Positions 30,246 through 63,219 of a stretch of DNA of 64,000 bases are shown here, one piece after another. Location of the stretch: the NCBI GenBank assembly GCA_964387145.1, contig CAYLVM010000002.1, forward strand, positions 31,763-95,762, read 5' to 3'. Below the pieces are notes generated by a model. The model saw only the letters and a list, made by a program, of their open reading frames with translations, was not told the origin of the DNA and made no database searches. This DNA is from an uncultured Acidimicrobiaceae bacterium. GTDB taxonomy: Bacteria > Actinomycetota > Acidimicrobiia > Spongiisociales > UBA5794. Numbering within the stretch: the stretch's first letter is position 1; each line of letters starts with the position of its first letter. A program made the position numbers and the translations under genes.

Positions 30246-30291
30246 GTCTGGCGCCGATACAGCCCGTATGTGAGCCGTTTCAGCGCCAGAG
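30246..30291. repeat. REP-like 46-bp palindromic element, copy 0 (variant)
   Basis: GTCTGGCGCCGATACAGCCCGTATGTGAGCCGTTTCAGCGCCAGAG between convergent uppS and a phosphatase gene. Confidence 0.7.
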
Positions 30292-30296
30292 TCCTG

Positions 30297-31025
30297 TCAG
30301 CGGCTGCGTTTGTCCATCGGGATGTGGTCCTGGTCGTTGAAGGTGCGCAGACTTGGGACGTGGGCACCGGCGAGCGGAATCATCTTCACCCTCGAGAACG
30401 ATGCATGGAACAGGACGAACTTCTCCCACTCCCATGGCGCTGGTGGGATGCCGAGAAGGTGGGTGAGGCACACCGAGTTGGTCCCTCCATGGGCGACGAT
30501 CACAAGACGCCCGGGGTCGCGCTCGACGTGCCAGAGACTCGAATCGTCGGGATCACGCACCATCCCCCGCTCGGCGAGGAGTGCATCGAGCGCCGTGGTC
30601 ACGCGGTCGTGGAAGTCGCGAAACGACTCTCCGCCGGCAAGACCGTCCCACCACTCATCGGGTGTCCGGTTCTTCGCGCTCTTGAAGATCTCGATGACAA
30701 CCTCTTCGGTCACCCCTTCCCAGTTGGGCATCTTGACCTCGACGAGGTTCTCGATCGTCGCGATCTCGAGCCCCGTCTTCTCGGCGATCGGGGCAGCGGT
30801 CTCCTGAGAGCGCAGCGCTGGCGAGACGATGAGTTCGGTGACGGGCTTGCGGTCCGTTGCGATCCGTTGGGCAGCGAACACAGCCTGTTCGTGTCCGAGC
30901 TCCGTGAGATGTGGGTTCGGCTGGGTGATGCCGTCGATGGCCCATTGGGGTTGGCCGTGCCTGACGAAAACGATGTCCATCGTCACGAGGTTACCCGTCC
31001 CGAGAGCCTCGATCGCTTCGGCCAT
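30297..31025 (-). CDS. Histidine phosphatase family (phosphoglycerate mutase-like) protein
   Basis: VFVRHGQ motif; alternative start at 30980 (MDIVFVRHGQ). Confidence 0.7.
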   Translation of the reverse strand: MAEAIEALGTGNLVTMDIVFVRHGQPQWAIDGITQPNPHLTELGHEQAVFAAQRIATDRKPVTELIVSPALRSQETAAPIAEKTGLEIATIENLVEVKMPNWEGVTEEVVIEIFKSAKNRTPDEWWDGLAGGESFRDFHDRVTTALDALLAERGMVRDPDDSSLWHVERDPGRLVIVAHGGTNSVCLTHLLGIPPAPWEWEKFVLFHASFSRVKMIPLAGAHVPSLRTFNDQDHIPMDKRSR

Positions 31026-31154
31026 CACGCACAGTCTCGTGCGATTGGGGTTCCGCAGTCTGGCACTAATGTTCTGTGTGCCCGGGCCAGTGTGTCCGGC
31101 CGGGCAGCTACAGGCTTGCCCGGTGAGTTGGATCCGACAACGAAGGAGCAACCG

Positions 31155-32420
31155 ATGAGACAAGGCAAGCGCTCGGTTCGTCTGCTCATGTTGCTCGTGG
31201 TGTTCGCCCTTGTGGCCGCCGCGTGTAGCAGTTCGAGCGAAGAGACGACGACCACAGCCGCCAGTGGCGATGAGGGAACGACGACCACAGCGGCGGCCAT
31301 GCCCGGCGAGGGGTTCAAGTTCGGGATGATCCTCGTGGGCCCTGAGAACGACCGTGGCTGGTCACAGGCTCACTACGAGGCAGGCAAGTACATCGAGGAG
31401 ATGACCGGTGCCGAGATGATCTCTCTCGACACCGTGAACCCCGCCGACCGTCCCGAGACGTCGGTGGAGCAGGTTGTCAGCGACATGATCGATCAGGGCG
31501 CGCAACTCATCTTCGCGACATCCGACGACATGAAGGACGGCATCGAAGCTGCTGCCGCTGAGCACCCCGACGTACCGATGATCTGGTCCTCCGGTGACAG
31601 TGCCTGGGAGCAAGGTGAGGCGTACCGCGCTGATCTCTCGAATCTTGGAAACATCATGGGCAGAATGACCATCGGCAAGGCGATCGCAGGCTGCGCCGCA
31701 GCGCTGACGTCCAGCACGGGCAACATCGCCTACCTCGGACCGCTGATCAACGATGAGACCCGTAGATTGGCCAGTTCTGTGTACCTCGGTGCCCAGGCCT
31801 GTTGGGAGCTTGCAGGGAACAACCCCGACAACCTCAACATGGAAGTCAACTGGATCGGCTTCTGGTTCAACATCCCAGGTGTGACGCTCGATCCGACCGA
31901 AGTCACGAACGCCTTCTTCGATGGCGGCGTCGACGTCGTCATCTCCGGTATCGACACGACCGAAGCACTCGTCGTGACAGGCCAGCGTGCAGCAGCAGGT
32001 GAGGACGTATGGGCGATCCCGTACGACTACGTCGGCGCGTGCTCGGAAGCACCGGAAGTCTGTCTCGGCGTCCCCTACTTCAACTGGGGACCCTCGTACC
32101 TCGACGTTGCAACGTCGGTCATGAACGGTACGTACGAACGCCAGTTCCAGTGGATCGGCCCGGACTGGACAGACATCAACAACCCGGACACATCGATGAT
32201 CGGCTGGGTGACCGGCGATGCACTGTCACCAGATGATGCTGCCACTCTCGATACGTTCATCGAGGGTCTCGGCGATGGCTCGATCGACCTGTTCGTCGGT
32301 CCCTTGAACTACCAGGACGGCACACCCTTCCTCGCCGACGGCGAGAAGGGATCGGACGTCCAGATCTGGTACATGAAGCAACTGCTCGAAGGCATGGAGG
32401 GCGCAAGCTCCTCCGGCTGA
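31155..32420 (+). CDS. BMP-family (PnrA/Med-like) ABC transporter substrate-binding lipoprotein
   Basis: Lipoprotein signal LLMLLVVFALVAAACSS; BMP-family sequence; followed by ABC ATPase and two permeases. Confidence 0.85.
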   Translation: MRQGKRSVRLLMLLVVFALVAAACSSSSEETTTTAASGDEGTTTTAAAMPGEGFKFGMILVGPENDRGWSQAHYEAGKYIEEMTGAEMISLDTVNPADRPETSVEQVVSDMIDQGAQLIFATSDDMKDGIEAAAAEHPDVPMIWSSGDSAWEQGEAYRADLSNLGNIMGRMTIGKAIAGCAAALTSSTGNIAYLGPLINDETRRLASSVYLGAQACWELAGNNPDNLNMEVNWIGFWFNIPGVTLDPTEVTNAFFDGGVDVVISGIDTTEALVVTGQRAAAGEDVWAIPYDYVGACSEAPEVCLGVPYFNWGPSYLDVATSVMNGTYERQFQWIGPDWTDINNPDTSMIGWVTGDALSPDDAATLDTFIEGLGDGSIDLFVGPLNYQDGTPFLADGEKGSDVQIWYMKQLLEGMEGASSSG

Positions 32421-32446
32421 GCGAGACCACACACGATGGAAGGGGG

Positions 32447-32480
32447 AGGTTCGTGAGAACCTCCCCCTTCCGCCATCTGA
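32447..32480 (+). terminator. Stem-loop after the BMP lipoprotein gene
   Basis: GGAAGGGGGAGGTTC-gtgag-AACCTCCCCCTTCC, perfect 15-bp stem, 27 bp after the stop. Confidence 0.6.
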
Positions 32481-32495
32481 GCCCCACCTGGTTCT

Positions 32496-32524
32496 AGATA
32501 CCAGATACCAAGTACCGAGTACCC
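32496..32524. repeat. CCRRGTA heptamer array (copy B)
   Basis: AGATACCAGATACCAAGTACCGAGTACCC. Confidence 0.5.
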
Positions 32525-32532
32525 TTCTCCCC

Positions 32533-33999
32533 ATGGCGCTCGAGATTCGGGACATCCACAAGTACTTCGGTCCTGTGCGTGCCAGTGATGGAGTCTCGTT
32601 CACCATCGAGTCGGGAACGCTTCACGGTGTTCTCGGTGAGAACGGTGCGGGCAAGTCCACGTTGATGAAGATCCTCTCGGGGTTCTACGAAGCGGACTCC
32701 GGTGAAGTCGTTCTCGATGGGGAGGTCCTGGATCTCCGTTCACCGGCAGACGCGATCAAGGTCGGCATCGGCATGCTGCATCAGGATCCACTTGTCTTCC
32801 TCCCGTTCTCCGTACTCGACAACTTCGTGTTGGGCGCACCCGGTGGACTCCGCCTCGACCGCTCCGAAGCACAGAGCGAACTCGCACGAGTGAGCACCGA
32901 CCTCGGTTTCCACTTCGACCCCACGGTCGCCGCCGGTGACCTGACGGTCGGAGAGCGCCAGCAGCTGGCTATCACGCGCCTCATGTGGCTCGGAGCCAAG
33001 GTGCTCATCTTCGATGAGCCGACCACCGGCATCTCAGCGACACAGCGTGCGCAGCTGTTCGCGACGCTCAAGCGTCTTGCACAGGACGGGCTGATCGTGC
33101 TGTTCGTTTCACACAAGCTCGAAGAGGTCGAAGAGTTGTGCGACTCGGTGACGGTCATCCGACAGGGAAAGGTCGTATACGAGGCAGATATGCCGGTGTC
33201 GTCCGAGACGCTTGTCGCCGAGATGTTCGGCAAGATCTTCGTTCAAGAGGACCACCCATCCATCGAGACGGGCGCCCCACTCCTGGTGTGCCGTGACCTC
33301 GTGCTCGATGAAGGAATGACCCACATCGAGACCCTCGACTTCGAGATCGCTTCGGGGGAGGTCGTCGGCCTCGCAGGCCTCGAGGGCAGTGGCCAGAGGA
33401 CCCTGTTGCGAGCCTGTGCAGGACTCATCGATCCGACCGAGGGGACGCTCACCGTCGACGGGGCCAACCTCACCGGGGCCTCATACCGGGACCACCTGCA
33501 AGCAGGCGTGCACTATCTCCCAGCGGGCCGTCTCGAGGAAGGCCTGGTCGAAGGTATCTCGATCGCCGAGCACCTCGTCCTCGTCTCGGATGACACGAGC
33601 TTCTTCATCGACTGGAAGAAAGCGGACGACGTGGCAGCAAGGGAGATCGGCGAGTACTCGATCAAGGGACGCCCTGATTCCAACGCCGAGACCCTCTCGG
33701 GTGGGAACCAGCAGCGGCTGCTCCTTGCAATGATCCCGGATGCAGTGCGATTGCTTCTTCTCGAGCATCCCACGCGTGGGCTCGATGTCGAGTCTGCCGC
33801 CTACGTGTGGACGCGGCTGCTCGAGCGCCGGGGCAGCGGCACGTCGATCATGTTCGCCTCAGCAGACCTCGACGAGTTGCTGCGTTACAGCGACCGGATC
33901 GTCGTGTTCTTCGGGGGTGACGTCTTTGCCACGCGAGACGCTGCCGAGACGGATGGTGAGGAACTCGGCTACCTCATCGGCGGAAAGGAGCGGGTGTGA
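32533..33999 (+). CDS. ABC transporter ATP-binding protein, duplicated ABC domains (nucleoside/sugar type)
   Basis: Two Walker A boxes (GENGAGKST; GLEGSGQRT) and two signature motifs (LTVGERQQLAI; LSGGNQQRLLLA). Confidence 0.9.
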   Translation: MALEIRDIHKYFGPVRASDGVSFTIESGTLHGVLGENGAGKSTLMKILSGFYEADSGEVVLDGEVLDLRSPADAIKVGIGMLHQDPLVFLPFSVLDNFVLGAPGGLRLDRSEAQSELARVSTDLGFHFDPTVAAGDLTVGERQQLAITRLMWLGAKVLIFDEPTTGISATQRAQLFATLKRLAQDGLIVLFVSHKLEEVEELCDSVTVIRQGKVVYEADMPVSSETLVAEMFGKIFVQEDHPSIETGAPLLVCRDLVLDEGMTHIETLDFEIASGEVVGLAGLEGSGQRTLLRACAGLIDPTEGTLTVDGANLTGASYRDHLQAGVHYLPAGRLEEGLVEGISIAEHLVLVSDDTSFFIDWKKADDVAAREIGEYSIKGRPDSNAETLSGGNQQRLLLAMIPDAVRLLLLEHPTRGLDVESAAYVWTRLLERRGSGTSIMFASADLDELLRYSDRIVVFFGGDVFATRDAAETDGEELGYLIGGKERV

Positions 34000-35045
34000 C
34001 CAGGCTCCGTCTCGCCGTCCCGACACTGGTTTCGCTTGCTGCAGCACTTACGTTTGGGATCCTGCTGCTCGTGGCTGTCGGTGCTCCGCCGTTCAAGGCA
34101 CTCAGCCTTCTCGTGGAGGGTTCGTTCGGATCCGCCTCGAAGATCTCCGCGACGCTCCTGGCGTGGTCACCACTACTCCTTGCATCCGCCGGACTCGTGA
34201 TCACGTTCGCAGCAGGACTCTGGAACATCGGCGTGGAGGGCCAGGTCATCATGGGGGCGATCGCTGCGAGCTGGGTTGCACGCGTTGTTCCCGGACCGGG
34301 GTGGGTCGTGGTGCCGGGAACGATCCTCGCCGGTGCGATCGGCGGTGCCGTGTGGGCACTCCTTGCAGGTTTCCTGAAGACGCACGGCGGTGTACACGAG
34401 ATCTTCGGAGGCCTCGGTCTGGACTTCGTCGCCGCGGGGATCGCAACCTATCTCGTCATTGGGCCGTGGAAGCGTGCGGGTGTCGCATCGACGAGCGGAA
34501 CCGACATCTTCCGGCAGGAAGCATGGATGCCCGAGTTCCAGGCGTTCGGTGTCGGTTGGCCCGTCATACCGGTGCTGTTGGGCCTTGCAAGCGTCGCGCT
34601 CGTCTGGGTGCTGCTGCGCGGCACACTGTTCGGACTCCGGCTCAAGTCGGTCGGGAGTAACTCGTACAGTTCGTTCCTCCTGGGGATCCCCACGAACCGG
34701 TACCTCCTCGGAGCGTTCGCCCTCGGTGGAGCGCTGGCAGGGATCGCAGGAACCGTGCAGGTCACGGCGTTCCACCACAAGCTGGTTCCGGCGATATCGG
34801 GTGGCTACGGGTTCCTTGCCATCCTCGTTGTCCTCCTCGCCGGGTTCTCTGCTGCACTCGTTGCACCGATCGCCCTGTTCTTCGTCGCAATCTCCGTCGG
34901 GAGCACACAACTCGATCTTCGCCTTGGCCTCGACTCGGCCTTCGGAGGAGTTCTCCAGGGAGTCATCGTGCTGTTCGTCATGTTCGGCGGTGCCTTTGCA
35001 GCACGGCGGGTGTCGTGGTCCCGATCGACCCAAGAGGAGCCCTGA
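33996..35045 (+). CDS. ABC transporter permease
   Basis: 349 aa polytopic membrane protein, overlaps the ATPase stop. Confidence 0.85.
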   Translation: MTRLRLAVPTLVSLAAALTFGILLLVAVGAPPFKALSLLVEGSFGSASKISATLLAWSPLLLASAGLVITFAAGLWNIGVEGQVIMGAIAASWVARVVPGPGWVVVPGTILAGAIGGAVWALLAGFLKTHGGVHEIFGGLGLDFVAAGIATYLVIGPWKRAGVASTSGTDIFRQEAWMPEFQAFGVGWPVIPVLLGLASVALVWVLLRGTLFGLRLKSVGSNSYSSFLLGIPTNRYLLGAFALGGALAGIAGTVQVTAFHHKLVPAISGGYGFLAILVVLLAGFSAALVAPIALFFVAISVGSTQLDLRLGLDSAFGGVLQGVIVLFVMFGGAFAARRVSWSRSTQEEP

Positions 35046-38497: not shown

Positions 38498-39252
38498 TCC
38501 TCGGTGCCCATGTGAGCTCGAAGGCTCCACTTGCCGAAGCGGCCGTGCGTGGAGCCGCCGCCGTCCAGATCTTCATGTCGAGTCCCCAGCAGTGGAAGGC
38601 ACCGATACCGAGAGACGACGCCAACGACCTCATGGCGTCGCCCATCGAGTTCTATGTCCACGCGCCGTACCTGGTGAATCTTGCATCGCCGAACAACAAG
38701 GTGCGGATCCCGTCACGCAAGATCCTCGCCCAGACGGTTGCTGCAGCCGAGTCGATCGGTGCCAAAGGAGTGATCGTCCACGGCGGCAGCGTGGGGGGCG
38801 ACGAGGATGTGTCCGTTGGCTTCGAGCGCTGGCGCAAGGCCCTCGACTCGTTCGACGTCACCGTGCCGGTACTTGTGGAGAACACAGCCGGCAAGGGCAA
38901 CACCGTCATGCAGAATCTGGGCAACTACGGCCCACTGTGGGAGGCGATCGGTGGTTACAACGTCGGGGTGTGCCTTGATACGTGCCACACCTGGGCAGCC
39001 GGTGCCGACATGGAGACCGCCGTCGATCTCGTCGCCGGCTTCACCGGGGGGATCGCACTTATCCATGCCAACGACTCGAGGGATGAGGCTGGCTCACATC
39101 GCGATCGTCACGCAAACTTCGGTGAGGGCCTGATCCCTGCCGACCTCCTCCTCGGCATGATCCGTGCCGCCGACGCTCCCATCATCGTGGAAACCCCCGG
39201 CGACGCCGCGGGTCAAACCCCCGACATCACCTACCTCCGCACCCACCTCTAG
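38494..39252 (+). CDS. nfo: Endonuclease IV (AP endonuclease family 2)
   Basis: TIM-barrel xylose isomerase-like sequence (AHAPYLVNLASPN, VIVHGGS, ENTAGKG, LDTCH). Confidence 0.8.
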   Translation: MILGAHVSSKAPLAEAAVRGAAAVQIFMSSPQQWKAPIPRDDANDLMASPIEFYVHAPYLVNLASPNNKVRIPSRKILAQTVAAAESIGAKGVIVHGGSVGGDEDVSVGFERWRKALDSFDVTVPVLVENTAGKGNTVMQNLGNYGPLWEAIGGYNVGVCLDTCHTWAAGADMETAVDLVAGFTGGIALIHANDSRDEAGSHRDRHANFGEGLIPADLLLGMIRAADAPIIVETPGDAAGQTPDITYLRTHL

Positions 39253-39254
39253 GT

Positions 39255-39300
39255 GTCTGGCGCTAGAACAGCTCGTATACGAGCCATATCAGCGCCAGAG
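39255..39300. repeat. REP-like palindromic element, copy 1
   Basis: GTCTGGCGCTAGAACAGCTCGTATACGAGCCATATCAGCGCCAGAG. Confidence 0.8.
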
Positions 39301-39302
39301 TC

Positions 39303-39842
39303 CTAGTACCACCAGTTGTGGAAGGGGACGGGTGGGCCGACGGGGGTCGCCCGCGACGATGGGCGTGCGGGGAACCATGCGAGTTCGCGTCCCGTGCCGT
39401 CCGCCGTTGCCGCCGACAGGGCATGAACGCCTCGCAGACCGAGGCCGTGCACGAAGGCACCGATGGGCTGGCAGGTCTCATGGGGGACACGATCGCCTGC
39501 ATCGTCGAGCGGGTAGGACACGGGTAGGCCGAGCGCTTCGAGTCCATCCCCCGTCAACGCGTCGGCGACCCTCTGGCGCGACGGCAGTGTCACGGAGATC
39601 AACACGAGAGGTGCGTCGAGGTCTTCGGGGCGTACCGGCGAGCCCTCGAGCATGCGGTAGATCTGAGAACGGGCCGTGTCGAGATCCTCGTTGAGGTAGA
39701 GCGTGGGAAACGACGCCGGCGGGTTCCACCGCCCACCGTGGTGCTGGGCGTACGAGGGGTCGAGGGGATCGTCCCAGTTGGTGTCCGCGACACGAAGCCA
39801 TGTCTGGCCGTCACGGAGGCCTTCCGCTATCGGATCGATCAT
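39303..39842 (-). CDS. RES domain toxin (MbcT/Res-like NAD+-targeting toxin)
   Basis: 179 aa; RES-domain-like motifs GGRWNPPASFPTLYLNEDLDTA...E. Confidence 0.75.
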   Translation of the reverse strand: MIDPIAEGLRDGQTWLRVADTNWDDPLDPSYAQHHGGRWNPPASFPTLYLNEDLDTARSQIYRMLEGSPVRPEDLDAPLVLISVTLPSRQRVADALTGDGLEALGLPVSYPLDDAGDRVPHETCQPIGAFVHGLGLRGVHALSAATADGTGRELAWFPARPSSRATPVGPPVPFHNWWY

Positions 39843-40276
39843 GGCTGAATTCGGCGCAGATCGAACATCGAAGCTACGGCGTCTGCGACGGCCGCGGTGT
39901 TGCCTTGTGCCGCCACATCGAGGAGTGACCTATCCCCGAGCATCGGAGCATCCCTGCGGACGACGGCGGGGATACGGTCTCTCTTGACGTACCGATCGAG
40001 GAGGTCTGTCGCTGCGGAGAGGTCTGCGATCGCCGATGCCCGTGCCGAAGGCGGTCCCGACCGAAGCCACTTCGAGAACGCCTGGCGTGAAACTCCGAAG
40101 ATCTTGGCTGCGGCTGCGTTCGACAGACCCCACAGTTCAATGAACCGCTCGAGCGGATCGGTACGCACTGCCCGGTCGAGTTCGTCGACGAACCTGCGCG
40201 TCCACTCTGCATCGGCCCGGTCTGCCACGACGGCTGCTGCCGCCTCGGGTTCCATATCCATCCATACGAGTGCCAT
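39839..40276 (-). CDS. Xre/MbcA-like antitoxin (DUF2384) of the RES-Xre TA system
   Basis: 145 aa; 4-bp overlap with the downstream RES gene; HTH-like AAKIFGVSRQAFSKW. Confidence 0.7.
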   Translation of the reverse strand: MALVWMDMEPEAAAAVVADRADAEWTRRFVDELDRAVRTDPLERFIELWGLSNAAAAKIFGVSRQAFSKWLRSGPPSARASAIADLSAATDLLDRYVKRDRIPAVVRRDAPMLGDRSLLDVAAQGNTAAVADAVASMFDLRRIQP

Positions 40277-41824: not shown

Positions 41825-41933
41825 CTCCCTGAGTAGGGCGGGCTCGGGGCCCGGAGGTGTTGGTTCCTCAGTTGATCCTTGTCATCACGTTCCGTTCGGC
41901 GATGTCCCAAGTGTACAACACGGTGTTGAGCGC

Positions 41934-41979
41934 GTCTGGCGCTGATACAACTCGTATACGAGCTGTATCAGCGCCAGAC
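41934..41979. repeat. REP-like palindromic element, copy 2 (perfect palindrome)
   Basis: GTCTGGCGCTGATACAACTCGTATACGAGCTGTATCAGCGCCAGAC. Confidence 0.85.
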
Positions 41980-41988
41980 ACCTGTAGA

Positions 41989-52363: not shown

Positions 52364-52424
52364 TGCAGCTCAACGCATCGCAGAATGGTACCGCACCGCC
52401 CACACCCCCTCCCCGCTCCCAGGA

Positions 52425-52470
52425 CTCTGGCGCTGATACAGCTCATATACGGTTCGATTCAACGCCAGAC
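52425..52470. repeat. REP-like palindromic element, copy 3 (degenerate right arm)
   Basis: CTCTGGCGCTGATACAGCTCATATACGGTTCGATTCAACGCCAGAC. Confidence 0.7.
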
Positions 52471-52472
52471 GC

Positions 52473-53291
52473 CTAGAAGAAGAGCCTTTTGGCAGCGTCG
52501 GTGAAGATGGCGAGGACGAGGAACCAGGCTCCGACGAGGATCAGGATGCGGCCACCCCACCTTTTCACCGCCGGACCGGCCGTCTTGAACCGGCTGAGGG
52601 TCGATGCCTGTGCAAATGTGGCACCGAGAGCGGCCAGGAACATCAGGATCACGATCATCGCGGCAGCGACCGTGAACGTGAACACCGACGTCGCGACGCT
52701 TCCGGCGATGAGGGACTGTGCGGCCAGACCGGCCAGCAGCGGTCCCGTTCAGGAGAACCCCGCCGCCAGGTAGCCGAAACCGTACAGGACGTGGCTCGAG
52801 AAGCGGGTCTCGTCGCCGATCGCTGCGCGTCTGCGGTCGATGGGCTCGGCGATTCTCGTCATGGCCGAGAAGTGCAGATCGACGACGCGTAGCTGAACAA
52901 GACCCATGACGATCAGAACGATGCCGACCACGACTCGCAGGATCCTTCCCTGGGCCGAGTCGAAGGAGAACAGGCGGGCGATGGCACCACCACCGAGGGA
53001 GAGCAGGAGACCGAAACCCACGATGAAGGCAACGGCCCCGACAGATGCTCCGGTCGCGAATCGAAGGGTATCGCGCGCCCGATGCTCCGGCGATGTCGTT
53101 GCCCGGCGGGCGAGTGTGGTCAGGAGGAGAGGGAACGAACAGGGCGAGAAGAACGCGGCGATACCGACCGTCGCGGCGACCACAACGAGTCCAACGCCGG
53201 TCGCTCCGCCGACGTCGAAGGAGCGGAACAGCCGGAACCCGACGTAGCCGGCGAAGCCGACGACGAGCGTGATGATGACGAGGAGCGCCAT
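52473..53291 (-). CDS. CcdA/DsbD-family thiol-disulfide transporter homolog with in-frame UGA (complement 52749-52751) replacing the second conserved Cys; predicted selenoprotein
   Basis: Reads MALLVII...AAFFSPCSFPLL...YGFGYLAAGFS-UGA-TGPLLAGLAAQSLIAG...RWGGRILILVGAWFLVLA; both segments are in one frame; the UGA aligns with Cys of the CcdA TM4 motif (AAGWTPCIGPILG); GGCC-GGUCU-GGCC hairpin 18 nt downstream. Confidence 0.6.
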
Positions 53292-53372
53292 ACGCGTCCG
53301 CAGCCTGGACTGCTTCAACTCGTCTCTGTCGGTCGTCACGGTTCTCCTGTGGTGTGGTGTGACTACCCTAAA

Positions 53373-53392
53373 CCTTGAAGTCGACTTCAAGG
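53373..53392. promoter_or_regulatory. Perfect 20-bp palindrome CCTTGAAGTCGACTTCAAGG between divergent merR and ccdA-like genes (MerR-type operator candidate)
   Basis: Seen in sequence; resembles the SoxR box (CCTCAAGTTAACTTGAGG) in architecture. Confidence 0.5.
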
Positions 53393-53404
53393 TCAAGAGG
53401 GATC

Positions 53405-53800
53405 GTGCAGATAGGAGAACTCGCCGGGGCGAACACCGTATCGACCGCAACGGTGCGGTATTACGAGCAGATCGGGCTTCTCGATCCCCCGAAGCGGACG
53501 GCGTCGGGGTACCGGGACTACGACCAAGATGCTTCAGCGAGACTCGGCTTCATTCGGGCTGCCCAGGGAGCAGGCCTCAGCCTGGAGGAGATCCGCACGA
53601 TCCTCGAGATATCGAACGCCGGAGATGCCCCGTGCGGTCACGTTGCAGGGTTGATAGATGAAAAGGTGAAGACGATCGCTACGAAGATCGCAGCACTTCA
53701 GGTGGCGAAGGCCGATCTCGAGGCGCTCTCCGCTCGAGCCCGAACCCTCACCGGAACCCCCTGCCCCGAAGGCTCCATCTGCCACATCCTCGCCCCATAG
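53405..53800 (+). CDS. MerR family transcriptional regulator with C-terminal Cys/His cluster (metal-responsive type)
   Basis: MerR HTH (IGELAGANTVSTATVRYYEQIGLL), coiled-coil linker, C-terminal PCGH...PCPEGSICH. Confidence 0.8.
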   Translation: MQIGELAGANTVSTATVRYYEQIGLLDPPKRTASGYRDYDQDASARLGFIRAAQGAGLSLEEIRTILEISNAGDAPCGHVAGLIDEKVKTIATKIAALQVAKADLEALSARARTLTGTPCPEGSICHILAP

Positions 53801-53802
53801 GA

Positions 53803-53848
53803 CTCTGGCGCTGAAACAGCTCATATACGAGCGGTAGCAGCGCCAGAC
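53803..53848. repeat. REP-like palindromic element, copy 4
   Basis: CTCTGGCGCTGAAACAGCTCATATACGAGCGGTAGCAGCGCCAGAC between convergent merR and PPOX genes. Confidence 0.8.
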
Positions 53849-53856
53849 GCCTGGGT

Positions 53857-54336: not shown

Positions 54337-54360
54337 GGAGCCAATGTAGCGACACCAGGA

Positions 54361-54406
54361 CTCTGGCGCCGAATCGGCTCGGATGCGAGCTGTTCCAGCG
54401 CCAGAC
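54361..54406. repeat. REP-like palindromic element, copy 5 (in a divergent promoter region)
   Basis: CTCTGGCGCCGAATCGGCTCGGATGCGAGCTGTTCCAGCGCCAGAC. Confidence 0.75.
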
Positions 54407-54565
54407 GCCAAAAGCCGACTGGTCGGAATGTTCCGGGGTCGTCTAGCCTTGTTCATAGAGAACGGGGCACGGGCGACCTTCGGGCGGCTGAGGTCCACGA
54501 CGTTCACAGAACGGAACGACCCGCTATGTCCTCCAACCCCTTGGGTGGAGAGAAGGGACCTCACG

Positions 54566-58332: not shown

Positions 58333-58349
58333 CCCACCCCCCCTCAGGA

Positions 58350-58394
58350 GTCTGGCGCTGAAACAGCTCGGATACGAGCCGTACCGGCGCCAGA
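58350..58394. repeat. REP-like palindromic element, copy 6
   Basis: GTCTGGCGCTGAAACAGCTCGGATACGAGCCGTACCGGCGCCAGAG. Confidence 0.8.
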
Positions 58395-58425
58395 GTGAGT
58401 GCAGACGGCTGGTACCTTCCTCGCC

Positions 58426-58974
58426 ATGACGCAGATCTACTTCACCGAAGCGACCGACGCCAACACCCTGCTCGCAGAGAACCACTTCGCGCTCCTCGTA
58501 GGGATGACGCTCTACCAGCAGATCCCCGTCGAGAAGGCTTTCGCCGGACCGTACGAGCTCGAGCAGCGTCTCGGTAAGCCGATCGATGCGCAGCTGATCG
58601 CATCGATGGATCCCGATGAGCTCGAGGTCGTTTTCCGTGAAAAGCCCGCTCTCCACCGGTTCCCGGCCAACATGGCGAAACGGACCCAGGCTGTGGCGAA
58701 CTTCATCGTCGATGAGTACGGCGGTGATCCAACCGGGTTGTGGGAGGGTGTCGAGACCCATGCCGAGCTGATCAAGCGGATCAAGGCGATGCCCGGCTTC
58801 GGCGACTACAAGGCCAGGGTCTACTCGGCGGTCCTCGCCAGACAGTTCGACGTCAAGCCTGCGGGGTGGGATGCAAAGCTCCCCGAGTGGCCCAACATCT
58901 CTGAGGTCGACTCTGCCGAGGGCCGCACCGAGATGAAGGCCCGCAAGAAAGCCTGGAAAGCCGCCCAGTCCTAG
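58426..58974 (+). CDS. HhH-GPD-type base-excision repair family protein (putative)
   Basis: 182 aa; resembles the small actinobacterial HhH-GPD family; uncertain. Confidence 0.45.
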   Translation: MTQIYFTEATDANTLLAENHFALLVGMTLYQQIPVEKAFAGPYELEQRLGKPIDAQLIASMDPDELEVVFREKPALHRFPANMAKRTQAVANFIVDEYGGDPTGLWEGVETHAELIKRIKAMPGFGDYKARVYSAVLARQFDVKPAGWDAKLPEWPNISEVDSAEGRTEMKARKKAWKAAQS

Positions 58975-58976
58975 GC

Positions 58977-59022
58977 GTCTGGCGCTGATACGGCTCGCAT
59001 ACGAGCGCTGCCGGCGCCAGGG
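58977..59022. repeat. REP-like palindromic element, copy 7
   Basis: GTCTGGCGCTGATACGGCTCGCATACGAGCGCTGCCGGCGCCAGGG. Confidence 0.75.
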
Positions 59023-59108
59023 TCCGAGCGTCATGGCAAAGTGGATTTCGGCGTAGGCTGAGGGGGCGGCACCTGCACCATGCGTGTCGCTTTCACAAGG
59101 GGTGGATC

Positions 59109-60449
59109 ATGACGTACGACGACACACTGAGTCACGATGAGGTAGCGGCGATAGCAGAAGAGGCGTATGTCTTGTTCTTCCCGATGCTCATGGGGTACCG
59201 GTACGCGTTCGGGTCGTTCCTCGTCCCCTCGTTGCCGTCCTACCGCGTGCCGTTGAACGTCCTCGGCGGAGAACCGGTGACGCTCGACCACACCTTCAAG
59301 GACGTCATCACCCCGAACGCCGACACCCCCTACTCGATGGCCGGACTCGATCTGCGGGCCGAACCGATGGTGCTGTCGGTCCCGGCGGTGAAGGACCGCT
59401 ACTACGTCATGCAGTTCGAGGACCTCTTCGGGATGAACGAACACTTCGTCGGTACCCGTGCCACGGGCACCGATCCAGGCACCTATCTCATCGCCGGGCC
59501 GAACTGGGACGGGGAGACGCCCGAAGGGATCGACGCGGTCCTTCGCAACGAGACCGACCTCGTCTTCCTCATCGGGCGCACGCAGATCTTCGGGCCGCAC
59601 GACGTCGAGGCCACCGGCCGGGTGATGTCCGCCTACGATCTGCGTCCCCTCTCGGTCTATCTCGGTGGCGAGCCTGTGGCGGCACTGCCGTATGACTGGC
59701 CCGTGTGGAACGATGATGCATCGAGAGACGAGCGCTTCATCACATACGCCAACGGTCTGCTCCCACTGTGCCAGCCGACACATCCCGATGAGGTGGAGAT
59801 CATGGCTCGCTTCGCCCGGATCGGCCTGGCCCCGGGTGAGCCGTTCGACGTCGATGCCCTCGACCAGGGTGCGCGAGCAGCGCTGAAGGCCGGAGTGGAT
59901 GCGGCTCGCACCCGCCTGGCAGAGATGTCCGAGAATATCGGGGAGAAGGTCAACGGTTGGACGAACACCGATCCGTTCGGTGACCGAGAGTTCTACGCGG
60001 GTGACTACATGCTGCGTGCCGTCGGAGCGATGGTCGGATGGGGAGGCAACGACAAAGTCGAGGCGTTCTATCCGATGGCGCGCACGGATGCAGACGGCGC
60101 CCCCTTCGACGGTACGAAGCGGTACCGGTTGACCTTCGACACGCTTCCACCTGCAAAGGCGTTCTGGTCGGTGACGATGTACAACACGGAGTACGACGGT
60201 ACGGCCGGGTTCTTCGTCGAGAACCCGATCGGGCGGTACCTCATCAACTCGACGACCGAGGGCCTCGTGTACGGGGAAGACGGTGCGCTTGCGATCACGA
60301 TCCAGCACGACGAGCCCACCGACCCGGCCGAGCGCGCCAACTGGCTCCCCGCTCCCGACGACGCGTTCTACCTGGCTCTGCGCCTCTACTCCCCCGCCCA
60401 GTCTGCCCTGGATAGCACCTGGACCCCACCCCCCGTCATCCGTCTCTAG
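59109..60449 (+). CDS. DUF1254/DUF1214 domain protein
   Basis: 446 aa; conserved hypothetical family common in actinobacteria; the overlapping 425-aa minus-strand ORF is judged spurious. Confidence 0.7.
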   Translation: MTYDDTLSHDEVAAIAEEAYVLFFPMLMGYRYAFGSFLVPSLPSYRVPLNVLGGEPVTLDHTFKDVITPNADTPYSMAGLDLRAEPMVLSVPAVKDRYYVMQFEDLFGMNEHFVGTRATGTDPGTYLIAGPNWDGETPEGIDAVLRNETDLVFLIGRTQIFGPHDVEATGRVMSAYDLRPLSVYLGGEPVAALPYDWPVWNDDASRDERFITYANGLLPLCQPTHPDEVEIMARFARIGLAPGEPFDVDALDQGARAALKAGVDAARTRLAEMSENIGEKVNGWTNTDPFGDREFYAGDYMLRAVGAMVGWGGNDKVEAFYPMARTDADGAPFDGTKRYRLTFDTLPPAKAFWSVTMYNTEYDGTAGFFVENPIGRYLINSTTEGLVYGEDGALAITIQHDEPTDPAERANWLPAPDDAFYLALRLYSPAQSALDSTWTPPPVIRL

Positions 60450-60452
60450 GCG

Positions 60453-60498
60453 TCTGGCGCTGAATCAGCTCATATCCGAGCCGTGGCAGCGCCAGAGT
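60453..60498. repeat. REP-like palindromic element, copy 8
   Basis: GTCTGGCGCTGAATCAGCTCATATCCGAGCCGTGGCAGCGCCAGAG between convergent genes. Confidence 0.8.
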
Positions 60499-60499
60499 C

Positions 60500-62095
60500 C
60501 TAAGGGAGTGTGCAGACTTCGGCGGCAAGGGCTCGGGTGTACGACAGGGGTGTGTCGGGACCAACGGAGAAACCCGTGTCGAGGCAGAAGAACCACGACG
60601 CGTCGGGGGTAACGAACACGGCTCGGGAACCGGCGAGGTCGATCGTCGTGTCGGGGCCGAGCATTGCGGTCGCCTCCGGGGCGGGGTAGAAGGTGACCCA
60701 CGGCCAGGTGCCGTCGTCGGCGACGACGGGGATCTGGTTGGGGGCAGGCTCGGTCTCACCTACCCAGTCGGTCGCCACGAAGGGGCCGTTGAGTCGCCCG
60801 TCGGCGTTACGGAGGATGGAGCGCATGAACGAGAGATGCCTCGCTTCGTACGACAGGAGACCGTCGGGGTAGCCACGGTGCGTCTCCCACGTCGCGATGA
60901 TGGTGTCGAGCGTCCGGCGGAGGTCGTCGATATCGGCCTCGAGCGGCGGTGGCTCGGTCGGGTTCTCGATATCTCCCTGGGAGACGCGCGAAGAGACACC
61001 GAGTTGCACCGAGTACCTGCCGTTCGAACCGGCGAGGCCTTCCATGTACCCGTAGTGAAGCGGTTCGTACCCCCACTCGTCCCGAGTCTCCCCCGACCCC
61101 TCCTGGATGATGAGGTGATAGGTGTGTTCGTTCGACGGGTCGTAGAGCGAGAGCTCCGTGCGTCGCCAGTCGTCGTCGCCGCTTTCGAGGAGCCGGAGAT
61201 ACGGTATGAGCTGCCGGCCCATGGCGTCCCACGCGAGCTTCTGTGCGGTCGACATGGCAGGTCTTCGCTGTGGTGATGCGAGCGCCGCGTCGACGAACCC
61301 CTGGTCGCCGAGTTCGAAGTCGGCGCTGCGGTACAGCCAGTTGCCGGTCACGTCGCTGAAGATCTCGTAGATCGGCTCCGGCGGTGGACCGTCCGGGTCG
61401 GACCACAGGTGCACGGTCGCGCCATCGACGGTGTACGCATCGGATGGGAGCGCCGCGTCGACGGTCCCCGTCGGGTCGCCGTGCACGACGACGTCGGCTG
61501 CCCCCGCTACGTGTGCGTTGGACACCGCTACGGGAACCATCTGGCCGATGAGGGCAGGGTCGGCCCGCCACGGCAAGGTGGCGATCTCCTCCTCGAACGG
61601 CTCCACGATCGTCAGGGAACCGACGGCGACGACCCGGTCACCCAGGGTCGCCGTGACGCGATGATCCCCGGTTTCCACAGCGGTGCGGGTCGTTCTCGAT
61701 CCGATTCGCTCGACGAACGTCGTGGGAAGGGTGAACGCCCAACAGGTTGCGATCTCCCCGGCCTGGGTGATGGACACCTGGCCGATCGTCATGGAGTGGG
61801 CGGAGTCCTCAGTCTCGAAGGCGATTACCGGATCGGTGTCGCCGGTGATCGCAGCGCAGATCTCGACGCGTTTGCCGACAGCCTGGGCGGGCGGGTACGC
61901 GACCAGGTCGACCGGCTCACCGAACAGTGCGGTCGTGGTCCTCGGCTGTGTGGTTGCCGTTGTGGAGGTCGGCGGGGCCGTTGTCGTCGACGTCGTTGTG
62001 AGCGTGGACGGTGGCGGCTCGGTGGACGGCGCCGGGCTGCAGGCAGCCGCGATCACCCCGATCGCCACGCCGACGATCGCGACCCGGTACATCAT
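60500..62095 (-). CDS. Hypothetical secreted lipoprotein with Thr/Pro-rich linker
   Basis: Start MMYRVAIVGVAIGVIAAACS (lipobox), then a TTTSTTTAPPTSTTATT linker and a ~450-aa domain of unknown function. Confidence 0.5.
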   Translation of the reverse strand: MMYRVAIVGVAIGVIAAACSPAPSTEPPPSTLTTTSTTTAPPTSTTATTQPRTTTALFGEPVDLVAYPPAQAVGKRVEICAAITGDTDPVIAFETEDSAHSMTIGQVSITQAGEIATCWAFTLPTTFVERIGSRTTRTAVETGDHRVTATLGDRVVAVGSLTIVEPFEEEIATLPWRADPALIGQMVPVAVSNAHVAGAADVVVHGDPTGTVDAALPSDAYTVDGATVHLWSDPDGPPPEPIYEIFSDVTGNWLYRSADFELGDQGFVDAALASPQRRPAMSTAQKLAWDAMGRQLIPYLRLLESGDDDWRRTELSLYDPSNEHTYHLIIQEGSGETRDEWGYEPLHYGYMEGLAGSNGRYSVQLGVSSRVSQGDIENPTEPPPLEADIDDLRRTLDTIIATWETHRGYPDGLLSYEARHLSFMRSILRNADGRLNGPFVATDWVGETEPAPNQIPVVADDGTWPWVTFYPAPEATAMLGPDTTIDLAGSRAVFVTPDASWFFCLDTGFSVGPDTPLSYTRALAAEVCTLP

Positions 62096-62140
62096 ATCCA
62101 ACCCCTCTCGACCGTACCCCACAGGCTAGATGCAATAGGT

Positions 62141-62186
62141 GTCTGGCGCTGAATCAACTCGTATTCGAGCTGTATCGGCGCCAGAC
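62141..62186. repeat. REP-like palindromic element, copy 9
   Basis: GTCTGGCGCTGAATCAACTCGTATTCGAGCTGTATCGGCGCCAGAC. Confidence 0.8.
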
Positions 62187-62262
62187 ACCTGGGCACCGCG
62201 ACAGACCTCTTCCATTCACCGGCTCGGCGTGGCACGGTGGCGGTGTGGAGGATCGTGAACGC

Positions 62263-63219
62263 ATGCTCAACACCATCGCCCGCGAGCAGCGGGGTGTGTT
62301 CACCATGCCCCAGGCCCTTGCATGTGGATTCCCAAGAGCAACGATCACGGGAAGGGTCGCCCGCGGTCTCTACGAGGGCATTCACCCCGGCGTATACGGC
62401 TTGGCCGGTTCGGAGGAGTCGTGGCATCGGGAGGTCCTGGCGGCCGTGCTTTCTGCAGCGGCTCCGTCGGCAGCCTCGCACCGCACGGCAGCGTACCTGT
62501 GGGGGATGATGTCGAAGCGTCCCGACATCACGGAGATCACGACACACCGACATCACAGATGTGACCGCTTCTCGTTCACGGTTCACGAGTCGAAGGATCT
62601 TCGGGCCTCCGACATCGTCGATGTCGACGGGGTACCGACCACGACGGCAGTGCGCACGGTGGTCGATCTCGGTGCATCGGCTCCCTCATGGCTCGTCGAA
62701 CGCTGCCTCGATTCGGGTCTTCGCAAGGAACTCTTCACCGCGTGGGAGGTCCGGTGCTTCATCGCCCGCGTCGCCCGTCCGGGACGCACCGGTATCGGTA
62801 CGATCCGGCCTCTCGTGACCGAGCGAATCGTCTGGAACAGCATCACAGAGTCGGATCTCGAGGACCTCTTTCGGGCGGTCGTCTCCCACCTCTCATATCC
62901 GATGCCGGATCCCCAGTTCAAGCTGTTCGAACCCAACGGCGAGTTCGTCGGGCGGTTCGACTTCGTCTACCGAGCGAGGCGAGCACTGATCGAAACCGAC
63001 AGCGAGCGGTGGCACATGGACCCGATCTCGTTCCGCAGAGATCGGGACAAGCAGAACCGTGCCCACGCCCTCGGATGGACGGTCTACCGGTTCACCTGGC
63101 GCCAACTCGTCGACGACCCAGCTTCCGTCCGCTCCACCATCACCGCCATCTGGACCGACCGACAGGACTCTGGCGCTGAAACAGCTCGGATACGAGCCGT
63201 ATCGGCGCCAGACGCCTAG
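62263..63219 (+). CDS. DUF559 (endonuclease-fold) protein with N-terminal AbiEi-like domain
   Basis: C-terminal DUF559-like motifs (GRFDFVYRARRALIETDSERWH..DRDKQNRAHALGWTVYRF); last 16 codons are encoded by REP copy 10. Confidence 0.6.
   Translation: MLNTIAREQRGVFTMPQALACGFPRATITGRVARGLYEGIHPGVYGLAGSEESWHREVLAAVLSAAAPSAASHRTAAYLWGMMSKRPDITEITTHRHHRCDRFSFTVHESKDLRASDIVDVDGVPTTTAVRTVVDLGASAPSWLVERCLDSGLRKELFTAWEVRCFIARVARPGRTGIGTIRPLVTERIVWNSITESDLEDLFRAVVSHLSYPMPDPQFKLFEPNGEFVGRFDFVYRARRALIETDSERWHMDPISFRRDRDKQNRAHALGWTVYRFTWRQLVDDPASVRSTITAIWTDRQDSGAETARIRAVSAPDA
63168..63213. repeat. REP-like palindromic element, copy 10
   Basis: CTCTGGCGCTGAAACAGCTCGGATACGAGCCGTATCGGCGCCAGAC. Confidence 0.8.

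Follow-up and report, generated by a model that had tools for sequence, protein, structure and literature searches.

A clade-specific family of REP-like intergenic palindromes in uncultured marine Acidimicrobiia

Introduction

REP-like repeats are, to our knowledge, well studied in Proteobacteria, barely described in Actinomycetota and undescribed in uncultured marine Acidimicrobiia. REPINs are REP doublets of Gammaproteobacteria that form hairpins and are mobilised by RAYT transposases. The RAYT is an HUH/Y1 transposase; its gene is present once in a genome that carries the repeats and usually has them at its borders, and a GTAG tetranucleotide at the 5' end of the REP is its cleavage site. 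We know of no REPIN-RAYT system described in the actinobacterial class of the host considered here, nor of any report of CGTC-tagged REPs from Actinobacteria.

REPs lie mostly downstream of genes, and their dimers make long hairpins (PMC3733652). Those carrying a terminal CGTC tag, or TGTC/CCTC, have no dedicated transposase and include dRS3 of Neisseria and RPE-4/6 of Rickettsia (Di Nocera et al. 2013, PMC3733652). For REPINs, very long vertical persistence and within-family diversity have been described (bioRxiv 10.1101/2021.07.10.451892). The window analysed here, a whole stretch of 64,000 nt, carries 11 copies of a near-palindrome that is a new REP-like family for its lineage, within a category already known and not a new kind of system.

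Results

Copies of the element in the window

Each of the 11 sites listed in the original prediction carries the repeat, against 0 copies expected by chance. The anchored pattern TCTGGCGC-N24-34-GCGCCAG matched ten of them (0 matches expected in the window), the copy at 52425 having one anchor mismatch, and an HMM built from 67 family members recovered exactly the 11 known copies. There are 23 occurrences of TCTGGCGC in the window, with 3.9 expected, and 20 of the 23 fall within elements; neither the HMM search nor the TCTGGCGC scan revealed degenerate or half copies, or solo arms, in the window. Ten of the 11 copies are located between 39 and 63 kb, as had been claimed. Rfam gave no match at the gathering threshold over the whole window and none at E<=1 over 58.2–63.4 kb. 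The copies (1-based numbering, no strand assigned) and the variable gene flanked by two of them are as follows, with RNA folding energies where given.

30242..30295, element copy 1, -28.7 kcal/mol: between tandem genes, with the UppS stop TAA 3 nt upstream and then a Bmp-like lipoprotein gene; arm state CG upstream and AC downstream.
39251..39304, element copy 2, -33.1 kcal/mol: between convergent AP_endonuc_2 (+) and RES toxin (-) genes; both TAG stops overlap its outer T|AGG edges, so that the element is the entire intergenic spacer.
41930..41983, element copy 3, -38.5 kcal/mol: the nearest to consensus, left outer AGG missing; tandem minus-strand genes, with the Ino1 stop 5 nt before and the ABC ATPase start 105 nt beyond.
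52421..52474, element copy 4, -20.3 kcal/mol: the most degenerate (8 mismatches), 57 nt upstream of the SfLAP (-) start.
53799..53852, element copy 5: between convergent genes, the MerR (+) TAG overlapping the left edge and the PNPOx (-) stop 4 nt off the right edge.
54357..54410, element copy 6: in the spacer of a divergent gene pair, between the starts of PNPOx (-) and PanB (+).
58346..58399, element copy 7: between tandem genes, 13 nt after the DUF192 stop and with its right edge overlapped by the GTG start codon of HhH-GPD; GAG in place of the right outer CCT.
58973..59026, element copy 8: between tandem genes, the HhH-GPD TAG overlapping the left edge and the DUF1254/DUF1214 gene starting 82 nt downstream.
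60448..60501, element copy 9: between the convergent DUF1254/1214 (+) and lipoprotein-like (-) genes, both stops overlapping element edges.
60500..62122, minus strand, variable gene for a 540-aa secreted or lipoprotein-like protein without a Pfam match, flanked by copies 9 and 10.
62137..62190, element copy 10, -43.6 kcal/mol: in the divergent spacer between the lipoprotein-like (-) and AbiEi/DUF559-like (+) starts; extended stem fully paired.
63164..63217, element copy 11, -39.0 kcal/mol: wholly within the final 18 codons of the AbiEi_4 + DUF559-like gene (~62200-63219, +); the far edge carries the TAG of that gene and is overlapped by the convergent DUF1501 (-) stop.

Several details of the original prediction had to be revised. 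It described perfectly palindromic elements of 46 bp, but none of the 11 copies is perfect, and the one offered as a perfect example (41934-41979) is self-complementary at 44 of 46 positions, with one mismatch to the consensus then proposed. That site alone lies within <=3 mismatches of that consensus, the other copies being 4–9 bases off it. The unit is 54 bp long, including the outer AGG/CCT, plus ~10 nt of flank, and the start given as 60453 was off by one. The copies had been placed mostly between convergent gene ends, but the surrounding genes are convergent at 4 copies, tandem at 4 and divergent at 2–3. The 0-based numbering used there was sound ('copy 2' is indeed the one at 41934), and its copies 5 and 9 (54361 and 62141) do lie in divergent regions; likewise, one copy is within the 3' end of a DUF559 ORF, which is AbiEi/DUF559-like. 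As for the ORF tail LALNQLVYELYQRQTP attributed to the repeat, one frame of the element does encode it, but the sole real tail in the window is read from another frame (ending in SGAETARIRAVSAPDA and a stop).

Anatomy of the element

The 54-bp unit is a near-palindrome of fixed geometry, yAGG-nn-TCTGGCGC-28 nt-GCGCCAGA-nn-CCTr, with C-rich/G-rich flanks of ~10 nt each. Going inward, the outer AGG/CCT is followed by a 2-nt variable step, the invariant 8-bp stem TCTGGCGC/GCGCCAGA, a 2x2 A/T position, a GCYCR stem and a NATN centre, and either arm conforms to the half-site consensus TCTGGCGC-Y-G-R-W-W-C-R-G-C-Y-C-R-K-A. The 8-mers TCTGGCGC and GCGCCAGA are essentially invariant in the 67 copies and their orthologs, and positions 11 and 12 are A or T only; a protein that recognises the sequence would explain these two features no less well than a hairpin.

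The termini AGGnnTCTGGCGC are conserved and the entire unit is an inverted repeat. They read yAGG-(CG/AC/AG/TG)-TCTGG, with no conserved GTAG tetranucleotide at the 5' end; the first tetranucleotide of the 134 arms is CGTC in 64 (~48%), ACTC in 45 (~34%), AGTC in 13 (~10%) and TGTC in 8 (~6%). The elements form a single size class, all 79 close terminus pairs (79/79) having a 44-nt spacing. Flank position -5 is A in 61/67 left flanks and T in 60/67 right flanks, the two sides being related as inverted and not direct repeats. No target-site duplication was found around the copies, and flank positions beyond -6 showed no significant match.

Distribution of the family

The family comprises 67 non-redundant copies, with unrelated flanks, from 45 metagenome contigs and 2 MAGs, and it occurs in independent assemblies from several projects. 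The carriers are uncultured marine Acidimicrobiia, among them the clade of the window, the loci L017 and L031, and the MAGs BMS9Abin20 and MAG044. No element was present in eight related loci of sister lineages (L051–L058) or in viral contigs. The copies are diverse and not near-identical, and some are shared at orthologous sites with relatives of 75–91% identity. These observations support a dispersed REP-like family, as first suggested from the letters of the window, and not a local duplication. The element appears restricted to only one group of uncultured marine Acidimicrobiia, and its dispersal in this lineage, if not already over, must be slow, the sister clades being without it.

Position relative to genes

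The copies lie directly after stop codons, at a median of ~7 nt. On 81 of the 129 classified sides, a gene reads into the element; ~90% of these 81 stops are within 17 nt of it, and on 36 of the 81 sides (~44%) the stop overlaps the T|AGG edge and is a TAG formed there. Candidate starts on read-out sides are at a median of ~35 nt, and the element often makes up the whole intergenic spacer. All copies are extragenic except a few that are read through as ORF tails, with at least 4 family members inside reading frames. Arm state is associated with transcription, CG being enriched on the side from which a gene reads in and AC on the read-out side (Fisher p=0.007). The 2–3 copies in divergent promoter regions are not where an mRNA would be expected to end, and they speak against a role as a 3'-end hairpin.

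Folding, variation and constraint

All 11 window copies fold, at -20 to -44 kcal/mol (z-scores -1.2 to -8.2), into a stem of ~22–25 bp that begins with TCTGGCGC and ends at the 4-nt centre, with no CCA tail. A T-tract was found on neither side of any copy, and a terminator scan of 50–64 kb returned five terminator-like sites, none of them an element.

Changes at stem positions 8, 10, 14, 17 and 19 are almost all transitions, so that purine-pyrimidine geometry is kept. Among canonical copies we detected no compensatory changes: the two arms have near-identical allele frequencies and vary independently, without cross-arm covariation, and none of the polymorphic pairs departs in its Watson-Crick frequency from that expected after shuffling. 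Nor did the arms give a signal of internal pairing, no covariation of positions 8 and 14 being among the 25 strongest column pairs. The bias of sense-strand G.U over A.C is weak (32 to 19, p=0.09). The rare sub-variants L001, L041 and L003_4393, with different interiors, are still palindromic and give positive covariation at positions 13, 16 and 18. Such independence of the arms is unlike the usual strongly selected RNA helix, and is a point against a 3'-end hairpin role.

Orthologous copies allowed rates of change to be compared. Against L019, 4/170 conserved and 17/100 variable positions differ, with 21–32% at third codon positions; against L017/L031, the figures are 10/170 and 34/100, with 28–50%. 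In these orthologous copies, about 34 of the 54 positions change at a rate 5–10 times below that of synonymous sites, and they are maintained by purifying selection or concerted evolution. Orthologous sites still carry copies at nucleotide divergences of 25% or more.

Recombination, indels and mobility genes

Synteny with L052/L054 showed that the elements are concentrated in that half of the window which varies, the half originally called accessory-looking. The genes that follow DUF192 (HhH-GPD, DUF1254/1214, lipoprotein-like, AbiEi-DUF559 and DUF1501) are missing in relatives, and copies 7–11 are interspersed among them. Locus L019 lacks window positions 60502–62136, that is, the lipoprotein-like gene plus the equivalent of one element, and keeps a single chimeric copy whose left arm comes from copy 9 and whose right arm comes from copy 10; to judge from the arms of this survivor, the case shows that copies recombine with each other. 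Copy 4 is kept at the orthologous site in L031, and copy 5 in L019, L017 and L031, a deletion of the merR ORF in the latter two ending precisely at the edge of copy 5. The PNPOx-PanB spacer, occupied by copy 6 in the window, contains a radical-SAM gene in L051 and a 194-aa gene in L055, and is empty in L052–L054. Synteny breakpoints coincide with elements in 20/44 cases, an enrichment inflated because the loci were picked for their element content and because whole-gene indels must end in tiny, element-filled spacers; one of these cases is a plain microhomology deletion.

No gene for a RAYT, transposase, integrase or IS200-like protein was found in 497 kb (the window plus loci); for the RAYT, the search comprised a motif scan, phmmer (queries: IS200 TnpA and the E. 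coli RAYT) and Pfam on the window genes. The earlier statement that the window contains no RAYT is thus borne out. In the same 497 kb there is no longer parent element with the same termini, longer terminus pairs being neighbouring elements on either side of ordinary genes. No candidate protein recurs beside the elements.

Discussion

The best explanation, to which we give a probability of roughly 0.6, is that of clade-specific, REP/REPIN-like dispersed intergenic palindromes of uncultured marine Acidimicrobiia, acting as transcribed hairpins and recombination hotspots. The element would form the last part of the upstream gene's mRNA, or lie within operon transcripts, and would then fold into a very stable hairpin, which we infer to be a 3'-end barrier, stabiliser or insulator and not a canonical terminator. 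As DNA, the repeats would serve as recombination hotspots bordering variable genes; the element is thus probably both an mRNA 3'-end hairpin and such a hotspot. Mobilisation by a RAYT is speculation, and membership of the REPIN class is unproven because no RAYT was found in the 497 kb.

A different role, possible although we regard it as unlikely, is that of a double-stranded or cruciform site for a symmetric host protein, for instance a nucleoid-associated protein, gyrase, or a domesticated recombinase or nuclease, in which case conservation would reflect protein contacts and not RNA structure. Arms that look like independent draws from one degenerate half-site, without cross-arm covariation, would be expected then, as would invariant 8-mers, A/T-only positions 11 and 12 resembling minor-groove readout, strictly fixed spacing and copies in divergent promoter spacers. 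Nevertheless, strict extragenic placement hugging stop codons is unexpected for a generic DNA-binding site, half-sites never occur alone, sub-variants with different interiors stay palindromic, arm state correlates with the direction of transcription and no recurring candidate protein accompanies the elements. In another proposal, which we find very improbable, the elements would be site-specific recombination sites (attC-, dif- or lox-like) bounding exchangeable gene cassettes, and a circle of a gene and one element might cross over, at the centre of the element, with a copy in the chromosome. This would account for the indel that separates the window from L019, precisely a gene and a single element, with its chimeric survivor, for the string of lineage-specific genes bounded by copies 7–11, and for the invariant 8-bp arms and their independence; several further indels also abut an element, and the gene found in a given spacer differs from lineage to lineage. 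Against it, no integrase or recombinase is encoded in the window or the 497 kb of loci, the bracketed genes point in both directions and housekeeping genes (uppS, ino1, panB) are flanked too, most indels have an element at just one of their ends, the excess of breakpoints at elements is confounded, elements persist for long at orthologous sites, and ordinary homologous recombination of two copies explains the chimera equally well. We likewise give a very low probability to a host-maintained, protein-recognised gene-exchange site of this kind, with integron- or dif-like cassettes in Acidimicrobiia, a putative recombinase and crossover at the centre.

Bidirectional intrinsic termination, the function originally suggested, is very improbable in its canonical form. 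All copies have a strong GC-rich hairpin, 4/11 have convergent neighbours and a stop codon precedes most members of the family, but no copy has a T-tract on either side and the terminator scan flags none. Moreover, four window copies separate co-directional genes in spacers too small for a promoter, candidate read-out starts at a median of ~35 nt are too close for one, 2–3 copies are in divergent regions, one window copy is within a CDS and at least 4 family members lie in reading frames. Recently active, neutrally evolving selfish MITEs, or a local duplication or assembly artefact, are largely refuted: the whole unit is a terminal inverted repeat and its distribution is patchy among close lineages (present in L017/L031, absent from L051–L058), but target-site duplications are absent (position -5 being A in left flanks but T in right ones, an inverted relation), the 497 kb hold no longer parent element with shared termini, the copies are diverse, conserved positions are strongly constrained, orthologous-site copies are found at 75% identity and the assemblies are independent and from several projects.

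The REP-like family of Acidimicrobiia opens no new field, the REP category being known, but it is a clean case for asking what maintains such repeats: the copies are old and position-stable with ~34/54 positions constrained, yet compensatory evolution is absent from the canonical copies and the 497 kb revealed no RAYT. In metagenomes it also provides a sharply defined sequence marker of one Acidimicrobiia clade, and it is a warning for annotation, as the repeat supplies stop codons and occasional 18-codon C-terminal tails in genomes of this clade.

Comparison with known systems

Like an integron attC, the element is imperfectly palindromic and lies at gene 3' ends, and a unit of a gene plus one site differs between relatives. 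Whereas attC sites vary in length and go with co-oriented, promoterless cassettes and an adjacent intI, it lacks the GTTRRRY/RYYYAAC cores, has a fixed length and flanks genes on both strands, housekeeping genes among them, with no intI in the window. With MITEs (Correia/NEMIS, ERIC, RUP) it shares being a short, non-coding, intergenic inverted repeat that folds in mRNA, may provide adjacent genes with a stop codon or a C-terminal tail and marks recombination and variable-gene borders. It differs from them in having neither target-site duplication nor, within the 497 kb, a parent insertion sequence, in being much shorter and palindromic throughout, and in being old and constrained instead of recently transposed.

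The likeness to REPINs lies in the symmetric doublet of two ~27 nt inverted arms that forms one long hairpin, in the many diverged, extragenic copies per genome, and in long vertical persistence at orthologous sites with a clade-specific sequence and a conserved, master-like core. However, no RAYT or IS200-like gene was found in the 497 kb, the GTAG tag is absent, the arms do not appear to be small stem-loops themselves, as REP units are, singlet (half) copies, which in decayed form accompany REP doublets, are lacking, and variation is two-allele at fixed positions whereas that of REPINs is a mutational cloud. The CGTC-tagged REPs have 8–9-bp stems that start from A/T pairs, 4–5-nt loops and a CCA tail, whereas the element is one hairpin of ~22–25 bp with fixed 54-bp geometry, and ~35% of its arms begin with ACTC and not CGTC. 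About half of the arms begin with CGTC (aggCGTCTGG), TGTC variants occur in both, no dedicated transposase is known for either, and both are mostly dimeric and downstream of genes, with occasional intragenic copies.

Structure of the Repeat Unit and Its Copies in the Window

The 54-bp near-palindromic element forms a genuine family of REP-like repeats, dispersed and specific to one clade. All 11 sites named in the original prediction carry related sequence, and its remarks on individual copies are correct when its copy numbers are taken as 0-based (ours are 1-based). The unit itself had to be redrawn. The predicted 46-mer consensus matched one site only at ≤3 mismatches, with the other copies off by 4–9 bases, and because of this single match the search with it was dropped and anchored patterns and an HMM were used instead. 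The matching site, 41934–41979, taken for a perfect palindrome, is self-complementary at 44 of its 46 positions. Exactly 28 nt lie between TCTGGCGC and GCGCCAGA at every window site. Two bases beyond the 8-mers comes a conserved AGG/CCT pair, so that the element measures 54 bp and not 46.

The anchored pattern matches 10 of the 11 sites (expectation from shuffles, 0), the remaining one showing a single anchor mismatch, and an HMM of 67 family members finds precisely the 11 window copies and no degenerate ones. TCTGGCGC occurs 23 times in the window versus 3.9 expected, 20 of them within elements; the three found elsewhere correspond to chance level, hence half-elements never occur alone. A further ~10 nt on each flank are C-rich at the left and G-rich at the right, independently of gene context. 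A stem of variable sequence extending past AGG was rejected, as position-wise z reached only 0.7–1.9 and what was left over was this compositional C-rich/G-rich flank; loci L034 and L030 are striking single cases of an apparent stem beyond AGG.

Gene Context of the Copies

Gene context of the 11 window copies
Convergent genes: copies 2 (39251–39304), 5 (53799–53852), 9 (60448–60501) and 11 (63164–63217)
Tandem genes: copies 1 (30242–30295), 3, 7 and 8
Divergent genes: copies 6 and 10 (62137–62190), possibly 4

With four convergent, four tandem and two or possibly three divergent sites, convergent gene pairs do not enclose the majority of copies, contrary to the prediction. At copies 2 and 9 the element takes up all of the intergenic spacer, since both neighbouring genes have a TAG stop that overlaps an outer T|AGG edge. 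Copy 11 lies wholly within the final 18 codons of a gene encoding AbiEi_4 and DUF559-like domains (tail ...QDSGAETARIRAVSAPDA*); the gene stops at the element's far edge. Across the family, a gene reads into the element on 81 of 129 classifiable sides; 36 of these 81 stops overlap the element edge and ~90% fall within 17 nt. On sides where the gene reads away, the first plausible start is found at a median of ~35 nt from the element, and ORFs read through the whole element at no fewer than four further loci.

Three candidate rules of context were discarded: a start codon abutting the element (true in just ~7 of 36 cases), a promoter within the element serving downstream genes (the arm shows no TANNNT-like −10 box and a sigma-70 scan came back negative) and a replication-strand bias of CG/AC orientation (5 versus 4 window copies on a single replichore).

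Other features of the window
6968–8182: 1.2-kb stretch without a called gene, from dnaA to yidC
10715–11874: parA
32438–32471: perfect 15-bp inverted repeat GGAAGGGGGAGGTTC/GAACCTCCCCCTTCC with a 4-nt loop, just 3' of the stop (32420) of a Bmp-like gene
39303–40276 (−): RES toxin and Xre-like antitoxin pair, adjoining copy 2
53372–53393: perfect 22-bp palindrome ACCTTGAAGTCGACTTCAAGGT, directly upstream of the merR start
54351–54424: divergent PNPOx–panB spacer, holding the element only
60502–62136: 540-aa lipoprotein-like gene and one element equivalent
~62200–63219 (+): AbiEi_4 and DUF559/MTES_1575-like endonuclease gene

The left part of the window corresponds to the chromosomal origin region, with gyrA, gyrB, dciA, recF, dnaN and dnaA, then yidC, rsmG and parA, and then biosynthetic genes. 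The gap between dnaA and yidC presumably holds oriC and the small rpmH and rnpA genes, and cumulative GC skew climbs from ~6 kb onwards. No recognisable parB follows parA, from which ~380 bp extend to the next, oppositely oriented ORF, itself without a Pfam match. The GGAAGGGGGAGGTTC/GAACCTCCCCCTTCC inverted repeat resembles a terminator hairpin and has no relation to the repeat family. The toxin–antitoxin pair beside copy 2 is also annotated in L049.

Distribution of the Family

The anchored pattern was run against one genome per species for 185,579 species, giving matches in three records only; two are true members, the Actinomycetota/Acidimicrobiia MAGs BMS9Abin20 and MAG044, and the third looks like a chance match. 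A metagenome collection yielded 45 contigs with the element, and these, together with the two MAGs, bear out the predicted dispersed family beyond the window. PanB homologs place the lineage in Acidimicrobiia. The non-redundant copies total 67 and form one size class, as 79 of 79 close terminus pairs are spaced 44 nt. The scanned viral contigs contained no element, and Rfam gave no match even at E ≤ 1.

No copy was present in eight related loci anchored on PanB (L051–L058; 80–90% amino-acid identity, ~100 kb in total), nor was an equivalent palindromic repeat found in these relatives. GCA_027494075.1 is a further Acidimicrobiia genome that lacks the element. Loci L017 and L031 carry copies though they are about as distant, which indicates a family that is clade-restricted and patchy within its clade. 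A filled-versus-empty comparison with L051–L058 was abandoned, since these loci gave no clean junction, being too diverged and having other inserts at the same spacers.

Variant elements with canonical termini (AGGCGTCTG...CCAGACGCC) and unrelated or decayed interiors were seen at L016 155–215, L003 4389–4442, L005 744–795 and L037 324–375; where L016 has its variant, the orthologous site of L045 holds a canonical copy. A short tandem array in L042 (4109–4397), consisting of several copies of a 54–83-bp segment, is unrelated to the palindromic element; L047, 96% identical to L042, has a single copy of that segment (2721–2803).

Folding, Arm Variation and Constraint

Hairpin energies of the window copies range from −20 to −44 kcal/mol. 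Every copy is devoid of a T-tract and the consensus terminator scan calls none, so the proposed bidirectional terminators were not borne out. The two arms vary independently at polymorphic positions, with Watson–Crick pairs as frequent as after shuffling (z about 0), and no covariation appeared in the alternative pairings checked; a cloverleaf fold with a GCYG-AWW-CRGC hairpin per arm was likewise rejected, as no covariation of positions 8 and 14 speaks for it. Stem positions 8, 10, 14, 17 and 19 show almost only transitions, so that a purine always stands opposite a pyrimidine, and positions 11 and 12 are A/T only. In rare sub-variants (L001, L041, L003_4393 and that of L016) the interior differs strongly yet is still a palindrome, and positions 13, 16 and 18 show weak positive covariation as a result.

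The dinucleotide beside the core is CG, AC, AG or TG, independently in each arm. Arms facing an incoming gene are enriched in the CG state, and those facing an outgoing gene in AC (Fisher p = 0.007), which ties the slight arm asymmetry to the direction of transcription. One speculative reason for this bias is that the AC state puts GAG 7–9 nt ahead of downstream starts. On the sense strand, G.U outnumbers A.C by 32 to 19 (p = 0.09), a trend only.

Substitutions in orthologous copies and in flanking genes
Window versus L019: variable positions changed, 17/100; conserved positions changed, 4/170; third codon positions of flanking genes, 21–32%
Window versus L017/L031: variable positions changed, 34/100; conserved positions changed, 10/170; third codon positions of flanking genes, 28–50%

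According to these counts, rates like those of non-synonymous sites hold for ~34 of the 54 positions; the others switch almost neutrally between the two states allowed to them. These are old, positionally stable copies, and what maintains them is either selection or conversion from one copy to another.

Recombination and Variable Genes around the Copies

Loci L038, L049 and L050 belong to the same strain as the window. Locus L019 (~91% identical) lacks window 60502–62136, where the start codon of the 540-aa gene is probably mis-called, and presents a single copy in place of copies 9 and 10, whose left flank and left arm are those of copy 9 and whose right arm and right flank are those of copy 10. 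The chimera records a clean event in which two copies recombined, whether homologously or site-specifically. In L017 and L031 the merR ORF is absent, the deletion running precisely up to the copy 5 edge.

The ACCTTGAAGTCGACTTCAAGGT palindrome upstream of merR looks like a putative MerR-type operator; in L017 and L031 a degenerate form of it survives beside a 233-aa divergent gene despite the precise merR deletion.

Synteny with L052 and L054 defines a conserved backbone of ino1-padR, then PNPOx and panB, RibD_C and DUF192, followed by rpsF-ssb-rpsR-rplI-dnaB, and in the same comparison the window genes past DUF192 are lineage-specific, each bounded by a copy. The products of the variable segments are unremarkable accessory proteins (hydrolase, permease, subtilase, DUF1254/1214), with no mobility function among them. 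Locus pairs ≥85% identical have 44 internal synteny breakpoints, 20 of them ≤10 nt from an element. As proof of cassette boundaries this count was largely discounted, because the loci had been picked for carrying an element, because the loss or gain of a whole gene necessarily ends in one of the very short spacers occupied by elements, and because a simple intragenic deletion at a microhomology explains one case.

The PNPOx–panB spacer is an insertion hotspot, occupied by a B12-binding radical-SAM gene in L051 (8352–9854), by a 194-aa gene in L055 (231–940) and by unrelated sequence of 119–400 bp in L052–L054. The AbiEi_4 and DUF559/MTES_1575-like gene failed the GC3 filter for typical host genes and, given this GC3, could have been acquired horizontally; its homologs in L032 and L033 (58–77% identity) likewise have their ends inside or at a copy of the element.

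Search for a Mobility Function

No transposase, integrase or RAYT (REP-associated tyrosine transposase) is encoded anywhere in the window, in agreement with the original prediction as regards RAYT. Over 497 kb, a motif scan and phmmer found no RAYT- or IS200-like gene, a weak negative; the best RAYT match (E = 0.05) was a shadow ORF without a Pfam domain. Clustering of 950 ORFs from element-bearing contigs revealed no recurrent enzyme or gene family, and no longer element sharing the same ends was found in the 497 kb. The element has no target-site duplication, since its flanks are inverted and not direct, which also rules out the TA, CTAG and CCWGG models.

Function of the Element and Comparison with Known Systems

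In the best-supported account, selection maintains the element, acting on a consensus that is symmetric and degenerate. From its position and stability, it would act as a hairpin at mRNA 3' ends or within operon transcripts. A serious rival is a binding site for a protein on double-stranded DNA, a reading that the independent variation of the arms favours. The copies may in addition be recombination hotspots at the borders of variable genes, with the L019 chimera as the one clean event and the other cases suggestive. A role in cassette exchange is improbable.

Regarding known systems, the element is not an attC site, and it is not an intrinsic terminator because the U-tract is missing. Neither is it a MITE in the strict sense, having no target-site duplication and, in the 497 kb covered, no parent IS. 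REPs tagged with CGTC lack a dedicated transposase, are mostly dimeric, lie downstream of genes and are unreported from Actinobacteria (PMC3733652); CGTC begins about half of the element arms, but the stem, loop and tail architecture of those REPs is not that of the element. Of the defining features of REPINs, a conserved GTAG tag is missing from the element, its arms gave no covariation signal for stem-loops of their own, the window has no singlets, and no cognate RAYT was found in the 497 kb covered. REPINs, which persist vertically over long periods (bioRxiv 10.1101/2021.07.10.451892), are nevertheless the closest in working, and the element has in common with them a symmetric doublet hairpin, an extragenic location, sequence diversity and long vertical persistence.
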